DNA from: a virus
Direction: 5' to 3' (one strand)
Length of the DNA stretch: 64,000 bases
Virus record (IMG/VR): IMGVR_UViG_3300001336_000002
Coordinates: 37,744 to 101,743 of that record
The position numbers were made by a program, and so were the translations under genes. Positions 7,062-11,457 of this stretch are shown in pieces (the stretch's first letter is position 1; every line of letters starts with the position of its first letter). Under the pieces are notes generated by a model. That model worked only from the letters and a program-made list of their open reading frames with translations, did no database searches and had not been told where the DNA came from.

Positions 7062-7220
7062 AACTGCATCCTATATCATGGGTCTGACATTGACAAGAAA
7101 AAATATCCACGGGTTTTTCAAGGCGTTCGTAAGGGTCTTCGTAAAAGAGATTATTTTGTTTTATATGAAAATGCGACCGGCCCCGAAAGTCGTTGCAGCA
7201 CAAGCACTTTCATCAGTAGG

Positions 7221-7293
7221 CGCACCTGATGGGATTTGAACCCACGACCTCTACCGTGACAGGGTAGCGAGCACTCCGCTGCTCCACAAGTGC
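7221..7293 (-). tRNA. tRNA-Asp(GTC)
   Basis: GCACTTG/CAGGTGC acceptor, CTACC-CTGTCAC-GGTAG anticodon arm, GGTTCAAATCC T-arm; CCA not encoded. Confidence 0.92.
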
Positions 7294-7433: not shown

Positions 7434-8414
7434 TCAGGCAAAGGCGACAGCCTTGACAGCCTTTAGCAGACGATTCTTCTCTGCATTGGTAGCAGCATCG
7501 AAACCGCTAGCAGCAGCGAGGACACCTTCTGCATTACCCCCGCGAGGGTTGCGGAACCAGTCCAGGCGCTCCGTCAGAGTGTTGTACGCACCCCACGCAG
7601 TACCCTTGATGTTGCCAACGGTGTCACCCTGGTAGATGTCAAACAGGGTATCGACCTTGTTTGTCCACTTGGTGACACTACCCTTGACATCCTTGTCAGG
7701 CTCAGGGTAGACAGCCTTGATGATATCGAAGAAGGTATCAGTCGTGATCTCCTTTTCGATCAAGGTCTGCGCCTCCTTCTCAAACTCATCCAGGTAAGCA
7801 TTGGCAAGGCCAAGAGCCTCACGCGCAGCCTGCACCTTGCCAGTAACCGTGGAGGTGTGACGAATCTTGTAGGACTGCTTCACACCATGCAGCGCATAGT
7901 TCAGAGTGTTCTGGCACACAACGCGCACAGGGGTAACGGATGCCTGCACAGCAAGCGAACCATCATGCGAGGTGTGAACCAGCAGATAGGTGTTCACCTT
8001 ATCGGTAGCACCGCTGGGGTCAAGGACTACCTCGCGGTCAAGGGCAAGGGAGCCAAAGACAACCGTGCCATTCTTGATGCTGCCAGCGGTCTCCCAACGG
8101 CCACCGTCAAGCATATTGTCAGCAAACGAGAACAGATCCTCGTTCTGCAGAACCTTGTAACGCTCACCCACAACGCCAAGGACATCGCGGTCACCGTCAA
8201 ACGGATTCTTGCGAGTGACAGCAAAATAGTTCTTGTGTGACCGACCAGGCAGATCAACGTCATCAAGACGAACATTCCAGCCAGCCAGATGAGCGACCTG
8301 AAGCATTTCCGATGTGCTAACCTCGTGGTCAAGGATGGTGCCAAGACCATGCCAAGCGGGTTCGCGCAGGGAAGCGAAGGAAGCCATATCTCCGTACTGC
8401 TCTAGCATGTGCAT
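7434..8414 (-). CDS. DUF932 (phage/plasmid-like TIGR03299) family protein
   Basis: PAWHGLG, Y.VLQN, WETAGS, SHDGS..TPVRVVCQNTL, IRHT and GTAWGAYN motifs. Confidence 0.9.
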   Translation of the reverse strand: MHMLEQYGDMASFASLREPAWHGLGTILDHEVSTSEMLQVAHLAGWNVRLDDVDLPGRSHKNYFAVTRKNPFDGDRDVLGVVGERYKVLQNEDLFSFADNMLDGGRWETAGSIKNGTVVFGSLALDREVVLDPSGATDKVNTYLLVHTSHDGSLAVQASVTPVRVVCQNTLNYALHGVKQSYKIRHTSTVTGKVQAAREALGLANAYLDEFEKEAQTLIEKEITTDTFFDIIKAVYPEPDKDVKGSVTKWTNKVDTLFDIYQGDTVGNIKGTAWGAYNTLTERLDWFRNPRGGNAEGVLAAASGFDAATNAEKNRLLKAVKAVAFA

Positions 8415-8582
8415 ATCATTTCCAATCTGTAGTAACTGATGATGTCATCATCCTATCAAGATGGTCTGACATTGGCAAGAAGAAAACGCAGATTTTCAAA
8501 ATATTTTTTGCAGGGGGTTTGTAACGGGTTCGTAACGATGATCGTAAAAGACTTGACAAAATTAGAATTTCGGGCCGGTCGC

Positions 8583-9222
8583 AAAAAGGTGTCCCCCAGG
8601 GGAGCGGCGGTGGGTGGGGGAGCGCTCAACCCTGAGGGACGTTTAGGGGAGCAGTTTGTCATCATGCTCAGGATGCCATATATGGTTATCAAACCTAGTG
8701 ATTCAGATATTTATTCTATAGAGGGTCAGGGGCTACCTGATTTCAACTATAGACGACTCAACCTGAATGCTATTGTTTGACAGTTTGGGAAGAATAGACG
8801 GACTCCTTTGCGGTTTACCCGCCGCTGATCAGACTTTGGGTAGCGCCCAAGGCGTGTTCTATTCTTCCTAGCCACCTTTAGGGAATCGAACCCTATATTA
8901 CCCAACCAGGGAAGGCAGAGTGCATTACTTTCTAGAATGTTCATGCACCAAGTTTAGGAAGGAGCATTATCTGCATTGCTTTTGCTCCTAAATTCCCAGG
9001 CGACTCCTGATATAGTTGTATAACGTATTAGCAGACCTGGGTGGGGAAGTGAGTCGATGTGGGGGTAGTTATCACAACTACCTGCCTCTTTCCATCTAGT
9101 CTAAAGAAGCGGATCTATTTTATGGGTGCCTGGGCTAATCCGACCCCTACATCCCTCCGCGACTAGATGAGTCCTATTCGGCCCCACGGGTCACATATCC
9201 CCAAGCCACTATTTATTTATGT
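8583..9222 (-). ncRNA. Putative ~640-nt multi-domain structured non-coding RNA or ncRNA cluster
   Basis: Extended -10 TGTTACAAT at 9227-9235, continuous nested stems, tRNA-like minidomain, pseudoknots, GC hairpin plus U-tract at 8583-8640; no credible ORF. Confidence 0.6.
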
Positions 9223-9238
9223 GATTATTGTAACATAT

Positions 9239-10554
9239 TTACTGAGAGGTTGTCCAACGATCTCCACTAGGAGTTGTAAGACGGATTCGATATGTACCCT
9301 GCGGATTGGGCACGATCTCCTGGATGGTGCCTGTCACACCTGACTTTGCAGTAGTGAAGGTCTCTCCGATAGCCAACATATTACTTACCCACAATCTGAA
9401 TAGGAATGGACTTGGTTTGGTTGGTCGCTCCATTAAAGTGACCCTTTTCGTTGCGAACAACGGCCTTTACAGCGTCGCCCCACTTCTCAGTACGAACAAT
9501 GATCTTTGACATTACCCACTCTTTCTGTCGTTGTTGTTGATATTAGTTTACAGTTCTGGCCAGGGATTGTCAAGGGTTTCTCTAAAATCTTCTGCAGTTG
9601 CGTCTATGACACCCTCTTCTATCCACATCCCTACCCCCACCATACCTTGAATAGCGGAGGCACCTATAGAATAGGATATATCATCCAATGTACCAATGTC
9701 AACCATTTCTTTTAAGTCTTGGACTGCTACTGCCACGGCAAGTTTGATATGAGAAACAATATCTTCCCCATTGACATAGCAAATATTGTCAATCATTTTG
9801 TATTCTACATCTGTTTTATCAAACGTATTCATTGACTATAATCCTTAGTTCTGATCTTCCAGAGGCTTTCAGCACCTTGCCGTTGCCCTCCTCATCGACC
9901 AGGGTAAGGATATGCAAGTCATCACCCTCATCTGCATAGTCTGTGCCTACAACATGATAGATGTCGTCTTTGATTAGAATCATGTCCCCTGGCTCAATTG
10001 AATAGACTTGCATTAATTCAGTAGTCATTGTCTTCTCCATTATATTAGAGTTTATAACCAGCCAAAGAGCACAACACCCAAGGCCATGATGAGCGGTAGA
10101 ATGATAATGGCAGTAAATAAAATCCCAATAATAGTCTCAATAGAATTGGGACGAGGTGGCTCATCCATTTAGTGCTCCTTGGGCATCATCGACTACCTTG
10201 GCATGAACAGACATCTCATTATGGATAATCATCAGGGTAGATGCAAGGATTTCATCATCTGTAATGTTGTAAGCATTCTCTATATAATACAGAGCCATCG
10301 CCAGATGGCTGTATGATGCTTTTAGGTTTAGTTGGACAGAGACATCTCTTTCACTCATTTAGATACTCCATCCACGATTGCAGGGCGGTAGTGAAATCAA
10401 GTTGACTAGGATTATTCTTCTCCCACCCAAAAGTAAATACATCTACCTCGCCACCTTCTCCAAACACGTTGGCAGTATGGCTACCCTTTGTCCATCGAAC
10501 GACGACGGTAGGCAGATAAGCAACCATTTCATTTTCTCTAGAAAGAATCATCAT
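9239..10554 (-). CDS. Operon of small hypothetical proteins (9239-9379, 9381-9512, 9548-9832, 9819-10040, 10161-10358, 10351-10554)
   Basis: Coupled ORFs downstream of the promoter at 10562-10583. Confidence 0.6.
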
Positions 10555-10702: not shown

Positions 10703-10927
10703 CTATGCAATAGCCCCCAAAGTCATTGCAAATGAACGCCTTTCAGCACCTGTCATGCCACCATAGACATGCGGCTCAAAGTCCTCATTTTCGATAGCGA
10801 ACATGAGGCAGTCGTCAATCACGGGACACGATTCACAAATCTCTTTAGCCTGCATGACGCGAGATGTCACTCCCGTCAGGAACAATGCGCTGTCTGCATC
10901 CTTGCACGCTGCCCTATCCTGCCACAT
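10703..10927 (-). CDS. whiB: WhiB-family Fe-S transcription factor
   Basis: WQDRAAC...F...AKEICESCPV..DCL.FA...HVYGG.T..ER (4 Cys plus G[V]WGG-like turn). Confidence 0.92.
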   Translation of the reverse strand: MWQDRAACKDADSALFLTGVTSRVMQAKEICESCPVIDDCLMFAIENEDFEPHVYGGMTGAERRSFAMTLGAIA

Positions 10928-11457
10928 TTGCAATCTCCTTTTTCCACTCGCGCTTCTCGCGCTTCTTGATGATCTTTCGTTCCATCCTAGCATCGGGGTA
11001 TGACATGCAGCACCCCCAGTAGCAACGCATTCCGTGCTTGCCGATATTGCGGCGGGTACGAATCATTCAGCCTCCGTCCATCGAACACCGTCAACGATAA
11101 TATCTTCATCTAGATACATGACGCGAGAATAGTCGAACGCGTTATCTGGCATCATGTGGTAAATGTCGATCCATGCTTTTTCTAGTTCGATGCTTAGATC
11201 CATTCGACTAGATCTCCATCCATGATCTCGTTTACGTCAAGGCCATTGGCCTCTGCAATGGCTTCCCACAGTTCTTCTTCCGTGAACCGTCCGTCCTCTG
11301 GCAGGTAGTCGATGTATGACATGTCAGTGCTCCTGTTCATCTACTTGATCGGTTATGTCGTTATAGAGGGATGTGATGATGTATCCCTGATTCATTAGTT
11401 CGCGCAGGCATTCCAATACCTGATCCCAGTCTGCGCGTGGCATCTCTACGGTTACCA

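Follow-up and report, generated by a model that had tools for sequence, protein, structure and literature searches.

A probable phage tRNA-operon-type non-coding unit of recurring structured modules, and a version of it without canonical tRNAs in a lake phage

It is long established that the tRNA regions of phages also yield extra small RNAs, which are unexplained. The classic case is that of RNAC and RNAD of T4, both of which are processed by RNase P. In murine gammaherpesvirus 68, tRNA-linked non-coding RNAs (TMERs) use a tRNA-like element as a processing handle. Other small RNAs relevant to the locus described here are the 6C RNA of actinobacteria, a hairpin that displays a run of unpaired C, and the 3'ETS-derived sRNAs, which are terminator-proximal fragments of tRNA operons and could act in trans. 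The two T4 species, also called species 1 and 2, come from the tRNA region of that phage, and their role is still unknown (PMC3014915). A survey of structured RNAs in viruses, with 10,006 motifs, draws on the viral collection that also holds the DNA studied here and lists unnamed candidates by the thousand (PMC10690425).

Here we analyse a non-coding unit of about 650 nt on the minus strand (9235-8580) of the window, by which we mean the whole stretch of 64,000 nt under study. This stretch makes up the right-hand 64 kb of a 101.7-kb virus record that is complete, with direct terminal repeats. Its source appears to be an uncultured lake phage, and four of the modules described below (A, B-C, M and D) are specific to a group of lake actinophages. 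A WhiB gene in the window, together with DUF932 relatives that lie almost entirely in actinophages, points to an actinobacterial host. The unit sits between a conserved small gene of 46 aa upstream and a DUF932 gene downstream, all on the minus strand (Table 1). An initial annotation had described this region as an ORF-free, densely structured transcript of about 640 nt with its own promoter and terminator, and had read it as either a new large non-coding RNA or a polycistronic array. As a description of the sequence this is confirmed, down to the presence of every complementary segment that it named; its interpretation is partly supported, as set out below.

Table 1. Features of the non-coding unit and its surroundings. 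Positions are those of the window unless a related locus (L) is named; z compares folding energy with that of shuffled sequences.
Feature	Position	Strand	Description	z
Conserved small gene (46 aa), stop	9241-9239	minus	upstream neighbour	
Promoter	9227-9256	minus	-35-like TGGACA, 18-nt spacer, extended -10 TGtTACAAT; 10/12 matches plus TG (promoter scan)	
Block A	9042-9205	minus	promoter-proximal hairpin; 39 distinct copies	
Insert X	9059-9187	minus	multibranch domain in P2 of A; 129 nt	-2.46
Module B	8995-9042	minus	outer stem CCCAGG/CCUGGG plus small inner hairpin; 12 homologues	
Module C	8953-8992	minus	hairpin GGAGCA/UGCUCC with conserved loop (AAAG...GAAUAA type); stems covary	
Small hairpin	8920-8948	minus	GUGCAU/AUGCAC; no homologue in the sequences searched	-1.70
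tRNA-Trp-like element (TLE), remnant	8871-8918	minus	47-nt acceptor/T-arm minihelix	
Three-way junction	8788-8868	minus	closed by 11-bp stem GGAAGAAUAGA/UCUAUUCUUCC	-2.41
Rod	8685-8783	minus	long imperfect hairpin; 0/200 shuffles equally stable	-4.78
M pseudoknot	8649-8676	minus	H-type, 28 nt; S1 CAUC/GAUG, loop CU, S2 GAGCA/UGCUC, linker AAAC	
Module D	8580-8640	minus	terminator hairpin GUCCCUCAGGG/CCCUGGGGGAC, inner stem GAGCG/CGCUC, C-rich loop CCCCCACCCACC, U tract	-4.54 (terminal hairpin)
DUF932 promoter-like site	8478-8450	minus	TTGCCA-17-TAGGAT; also reads TGTCAG + 10 nt + TAGGAT	
DUF932 gene	8414-7434	minus	downstream neighbour	
Other M copies	7408-7379 and 7326-7299	minus	~30 nt past the DUF932 stop; 4 nt before tRNA-Asp	
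tRNA-Asp	7219-7293	minus	sole ARAGORN call in the window	
WhiB gene	10703-10993			
Full TLE copies	L002:2384-2451; L084:1452-1519; L194:683-750 (minus); L286:8013-8081; 8 more			

The minus-strand promoter named in the initial annotation is also found by our scan as TGGACA-18-TACAAT with TG. It has the TGn + TAnnnT arrangement and, at 18 nt, a -35-like hexamer within the 16-18 nt expected, and the predicted promoter is thus an ordinary sigma-70-type extended -10 promoter, whose start overlaps the end of the 46-aa gene. In 30 of 41 related cassettes an extended -10 element lies at a fixed 24-27 nt upstream of the core of block A, the first structured module. The 20 nt that separate the -10 element from block A (9225-9206) are conserved in the window and 30 relatives as AAC/AUAAAUAGUGGCUUG, and the 5' end of the RNA therefore probably belongs to the functional element. 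At the other end, the proposed terminator is borne out by a hairpin at 8640-8591 (about 17 predicted pairs, -28.8 kcal/mol) with a C-rich loop, followed by the U tract ACCUUUUU. A terminator scan did not list this hairpin because its loop limit was 8 nt. Between these ends the sequence is densely structured, as had been claimed: the whole 651-nt stretch folds at -215 kcal/mol, compared with -190.6 +/- 6.9 for shuffles (z -3.55), and the rod and the terminal hairpin have the lowest z among the sub-domains, ahead of insert X and the three-way junction (Table 1). Frequent G-U pairs in M, the TLE and B-C would be C-A mismatches on the opposite strand, and thus the RNA is the minus-strand one.

Could the region instead encode one or more small proteins, for example from the frame at 8747-8944? 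That frame, at 65 aa, is the longest on the RNA strand to open with ATG; with any start codon the longest is 78 aa (TTG start, 8456-8692), and the plus strand has an ORF of 113 aa. Yet none of six overlapping ORFs matches PHROGs, and the three longest frames have no match in Pfam, both searched to E 1. The 65-aa frame lacks a convincing ribosome-binding site and overlaps the covarying tRNA-like element. In addition, relatives keep base pairing rather than reading frames. The stretch thus has no credible ORF, and a coding function is extremely improbable.

To place the unit among relatives, three sets of sequences were assembled: 80 viral loci via the DUF932 gene, 80 via the small upstream gene and 107 metagenome stretches via a 17-mer of block A. 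Plain similarity searches retrieve mere patches of the unit, because it consists of short modules strung together, and these turn up among the relatives in differing combinations. Across phage and metagenome contigs, 41 distinct related cassettes follow one modular grammar, that of a tRNA operon: an extended -10 promoter, A, an optional B-C, M, a tRNA-Trp or TLE, a tRNA-Asp and terminator D. After block A, several routes are taken. Some cassettes run from M through tRNA-Asp to D, and others from M through a TLE, and sometimes a junction module, to tRNA-Asp. In further cassettes, a hairpin module E leads to a TLE and/or tRNA-Asp, or B-C leads to tRNA-Trp, a TLE or another tRNA. Units range from less than 200 nt to about 650 nt in length. 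Where a cassette extends far enough downstream to judge, at least one canonical tRNA is present between A and D except in about five cases, namely the window, L194, L100, L207 and L211. The window retains A, B, C, M and D, but the tRNA-Asp slot between M and D is empty. L194 is a second, independent tRNA-less unit of about 520 nt, with the order A-B-C-TLE-...-M-D, and in both it and the window M abuts D, where most relatives have tRNA-Asp.

The phage has not lost its tRNA-Asp, which lies about 1.3 kb downstream of the unit, past the DUF932 gene and behind two copies of M. Four tRNA genes were found in the whole phage, scattered rather than clustered, with three of them left of the window (G000, contig positions 19570-19645, 27079-27149 and 31286-31356). 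Related phages have arrays of up to seven tRNAs in the cassette region. No CCA-adding enzyme was found encoded by the phage.

We compared the unit with described RNA families. In Rfam 15 at the gathering score, the whole window gave no match for the unit; nor did region 8400-9400 at E up to 10, which bears out the novelty suggested by the initial annotation. The same search of four close relatives and of the L194 unit returned only tRNAs and chance or sub-threshold matches. Covariance models of GOLLD, ROOL and other large RNAs of Rfam had no match in the window, in 8400-9400 or in L194, and blastn against GenBank phages found nothing that matched the unit or its unique part. Two particular candidates were rejected. 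A tmRNA, whether standard or two-piece, is disfavoured by the lack of an ARAGORN call and of any tmRNA family match up to E 10, and by the absence of pairing between the acceptor strands and the 5' GGGGCC motif of X. A bacterial Y RNA (YrlA) has no Rfam match, and a TROVE domain is absent from the phage genome, although a Ro/Rsr partner might be encoded by the host.

Block A consists of stem P1 (GGGGA/UCCCC), a UAU bulge, stem P1b (GUGA/UCAC here, GCGA/UCGC in most copies), a loop CC(C)...AUCGAC and a variable arm, P2, which ranges from 0 to about 130 nt. Its stems are nearly invariant. Since the 5' half of A also served as a search key, the structural support consists of the variable P2 and a few compensatory events, GUGA/UCAC in the window and UUAGG/CCUAA in L100. 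A TCACATA/TATGTGA helix drawn here in the initial annotation does not hold up: it is not conserved in relatives and competes with the conserved GYGA/UCRC stem of block A. Reading A as a K-turn was also rejected, because Watson-Crick pairing resumes after the 3-nt bulge. The 17-mer of A has 26 chance matches in 185,579 prokaryote genomes, none of them with the 3' half beside it; at this level, block A is thus specific to phages.

In the window, P2 is replaced by insert X. This 129-nt domain is closed by GUGGGG/CCCCAC and contains a long arm, CAUCUAGUC/GACUAGAUG, and a hairpin, GGUAGUU-GUGAU-AACUACC. Its flanks (GGGGCCGAAUAGGACUC and GGCAGGUAGUUGUGA.AACUACCCCCA) were found in only one other phage contig (L100/L172), where X lies upstream of block A (L100:1505-1575) rather than inside it. 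X behaves like a movable RNA cassette.

Modules B and C follow A. Their hairpins occur in at least 12 distinct cassettes, where sequence varies and pairing persists; in the outer stem of B, every position takes 2-4 kinds of pair, as in the variants CCCAGG/CCUGGG, CCGUGG/CCACGG, GGGUGG/CCACCC and CACCUG/CAGGUG. These stem counts were taken from energy folds of each sequence rather than from an independent alignment, since MAFFT misaligns the 3' strand of B. RNAalifold further proposed a long-range helix, absent from the initial annotation, between the conserved 5' internal loop of B (GUUCCN) and the apical loop of C (NGGAAU), likewise conserved. It is 100% paired in nine aligned sequences, with four of its six pairs doubly changed; none of 500 shuffles equals it, and slid controls lie far below. 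A GUUCG/CGAAU version occurs in three further cassettes. As a control, a random 6-mer had a perfect partner in 7% of cases. In the window the helix is formed by GUCUGC (9036-9031) with GCAGAU (8974-8969), which includes three compensatory changes. Thus B-C is one pseudoknotted domain. The pseudoknot of crossing helices that had been proposed at 8995-9056 survives in part, since its CCCAGG/CCTGGG helix shows compensatory changes whereas its CGACTC/GAGTCG arm is not conserved in relatives. With B-C alone as the query, nhmmer retrieved the nearest relative only.

The B-C helix bears on whether the unit is one ornate non-coding RNA of the GOLLD or ROOL kind, folded into a single particle of about 640 nt. 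Such a particle would account for the strong overall structure and for at least one true long-range tertiary helix, from B to C. The unit also adjoins tRNA genes, as GOLLD does, and L194 provides a tRNA-less unit of similar length. However, the helix between B and C is the sole long-range one found and spans 60 nt, unit length is not maintained among the cassettes, and 190 nt of the window's version are unique to this phage. No Rfam family matches, as noted above. The modules occur in many combinations and orders, as with X, which block A encloses in the window but follows in L100. Given this shuffling, and with no helix that links the whole, a single GOLLD-like particle is very unlikely. Of the two possibilities raised in the initial annotation, the array fits, with its modules recombining freely across the 41 cassettes, and the single conserved large RNA does not.

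Between the small hairpin and the three-way junction lies the slot that holds a tRNA-Trp in some relatives. A canonical tRNA-Trp(CCA) fills it in L208, L213, L215, L216 and L268. In other relatives it is occupied by a TLE of 68-69 nt that is missed by both ARAGORN and Rfam. The TLE can be aligned with tRNA-Trp and retains the anticodon loop CUCCAAA, the T arm and the G discriminator; its D arm is shortened, and its particular features are a 3-nt D loop, a C31/A39 mismatch and G1-U72. In 12 distinct full copies, 93.8% of the cells of the cloverleaf are paired and eight pairs are doubly changed, with none of 500 shuffles equal. These copies belong to the tRNA-Trp(CCA) lineage, and on their sequence they could be working tRNAs or mimics. 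The window has a remnant, which aligns with the 12 full TLEs and the five canonical genes in the same slot. From that lineage it retains acceptor and T-arm parts only: a 7-bp acceptor-like stem, a mini hairpin CCC-UGGUU-GGG and a canonical T arm UAGGG-UUCGAUU-CCCUA, with no D arm, anticodon arm or encoded CCA. Neither ARAGORN nor RF00005 (at least 29 bits needed) calls it a tRNA. On the TLE of L194, the mascRNA-menRNA model (RF01684) scores 23.3 bits (E 0.027), below its gathering score of 42.5, and it has no match to the window remnant. A hairpin after the TLE is common to L194:690-620 (minus) and L089; it contains AAAGGAG, AUG and a frame of 6-8 codons (MTMCSRID, MCSCDT), which may have arisen by chance or may encode a tiny leader peptide.

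The small pseudoknot M has 266 distinct copies across related loci, all on the gene strand. The next nucleotide is usually A, often as ACC. In 136 aligned copies, 90.7% of cells are paired and 281 cells are doubly changed; none of 500 shuffles is equal, and slid controls reach 27-38%. Copies lie 2-12 nt before a tRNA (32), before a TLE (9) or before a ribosome-binding site (57). The phage has three in total, all within 1.4 kb. M alone has no match in Rfam, and it is absent from the locus in Yaboi, one of the cultured Streptomyces phages in which the DUF932 gene also occurs. We rejected the idea that M is a general promoter, since there are just three copies in 101.7 kb and both stems covary. 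M is also not a coremin exoribonuclease-resistant RNA (xrRNA), in which a YGAD tetraloop hairpin and a conserved 10-nt spacer precede a separate second hairpin (PMC6546385): the 8-nt loop of M, CUGAGCAW, is instead paired by its 3' strand.

Module D closes the unit in 22 distinct relatives, where the outer and inner stems covary, a UU bulge is present, the loop CCCACCCACC is conserved, and a U tract follows. In the rest of the phage genome, no complement or target of the D loop was found. Of the elements in the initial annotation, the tRNA-like module, the small pseudoknot and the terminal hairpin are thus all maintained in relatives with compensatory changes, and covariation supports M, the cloverleaf of the TLE, the stems of B and C and the B-C helix.

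The position of D suggests a second alternative, that A-B-C is a cis-acting leader. It could modify or pause the polymerase, through put-like or EAR-like antitermination or through attenuation, and so set the level of read-through across the structured array and past D into DUF932. Consistent with this, block A keeps its fixed distance from the -10 element, and the unit directly precedes DUF932 in the window, L002-L005, L100 and L285, with the conserved, terminator-like D placed ahead of that gene. On the other hand, DUF932 has its own promoter-like site after D (Table 1), unrelated genes follow the unit in other cassettes, block A of L104 sits behind a copy of M rather than next to a promoter, and no alternative antiterminator pairing was found. 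A leader is therefore unlikely. The TGTCAG motif in the DUF932 promoter-like site also precedes small genes in related loci, for example L084.

Not all of the unit can be compared with relatives. Searches of about 290 related loci, of the phage's own genome and of GenBank phages turned up no relative of the small hairpin, the three-way junction or the rod. About 190 nt (8868-8685) are without any relative in the sequences searched, and about 320 nt (X, hairpin, junction and rod) have at most one, hence no comparative support. One could take these parts as junk insertions in a relic under decay: the unit would once have been a tRNA-Trp/tRNA-Asp operon and would now, its tRNAs lost, be drifting. 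The truncated TLE and the empty tRNA-Asp slot would fit such a history. Yet neither promoter nor terminator is damaged, M and D have their canonical form, and the unique parts fold with far greater stability than shuffles. L194 is a second, independent tRNA-less unit. Moreover, the changes carried by the window itself in A (GUGA/UCAC) and in the B-C helix (GUCUGC/GCAGAU) are compensatory rather than disruptive. This structural selection argues against a dead relic, which is decidedly unlikely, and for a role of the accessory modules' own.

Taken together, the stretch is probably a phage tRNA-operon-type non-coding unit, a polycistronic precursor of small structured RNAs that is cut by the host's tRNA-processing enzymes, this last step being inferred by analogy with the two small RNAs of the T4 tRNA region. 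Read from the sequence, the unit could work as follows. Host RNA polymerase would initiate some 18 nt ahead of A, at the extended -10 promoter, and transcribe a chain of modules that fold independently: A with X, the B-C pseudoknot, the hairpin, the TLE minihelix, the junction, the rod and M. Transcription would stop at hairpin D, which may have two roles, one in intrinsic termination and the other, at the 3' end, in presenting the conserved C-rich loop. RNase P, acting at the acceptor-like stem, and 3' processing nucleases would release small stable RNAs, and M may serve as compact punctuation or as a knot that protects ends; an end-protecting or roadblock role for M is a fair guess. In this phage, the Trp element is without the D and anticodon arms, which it has lost, and tRNA-Asp lies beyond the next gene. 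The truncated TLE may no longer be a substrate of RNase P.

A different joint reading gives A-B-C and the TLE functions of their own. Several mycobacterial VapC toxins attack tRNA-Trp, and the TLE and its minihelix could be decoys for, or resistant substitutes against, host nucleases of this kind. A-B-C would in turn be a new class of promoter-proximal pseudoknotted RNA, for which a polymerase-modifying element, a ligand- or protein-binding element and a trans-acting RNA are candidate roles; a function of its own would explain why A-B-C is retained where the operon has lost its tRNAs. We regard this combination as possible, though rather unlikely.

Under the preferred reading of the unit as a polycistronic precursor, the window is a natural experiment, in which the tRNAs are gone and the accessory modules are still selected for structure. 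This argues for a role of the modules beyond helping tRNAs to mature. It also means that dense structure over 600 nt need not be the mark of a single giant RNA. The lake actinophage lineage thus supplies a set of extra RNAs from phage tRNA regions (A, B-C, TLE, M and D) that have clear comparative support.

How does the unit compare with the described systems? It shares with GOLLD and ROOL a phage or prophage location near tRNA genes and many helices, but in place of a conserved global architecture it has shuffling modules, with no match in Rfam. Module D recalls 6C RNA and, by its place near the end of a tRNA operon, the 3'ETS-derived sRNAs, but it is a single hairpin, with no match to the Rfam 6C family up to E 10 and no target in the phage genome. 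M is, like coremin, a very small fold in which a hairpin precedes a conserved AAAC-containing spacer, and both may act in roadblock or end protection; unlike coremin, M uses its 8-nt loop to pair with the 3' strand and is an H-type pseudoknot. As in mascRNA/MALAT1 and the TMERs, a tRNA-like element lies inside a longer non-coding transcript, where it could be a handle for tRNA-processing enzymes, although those systems are eukaryotic and the resemblance is one of analogy, with a sub-threshold match of the TLE. A further parallel, in genomic setting, is T4 RNAC and RNAD. The unit in the window differs from the T4 case in having no canonical tRNA and in being built from modules specific to a lake actinophage group. 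In the relatives, however, the modules are observed together with tRNAs, and there, as in T4, small non-tRNA RNAs would be encoded among phage tRNA genes.
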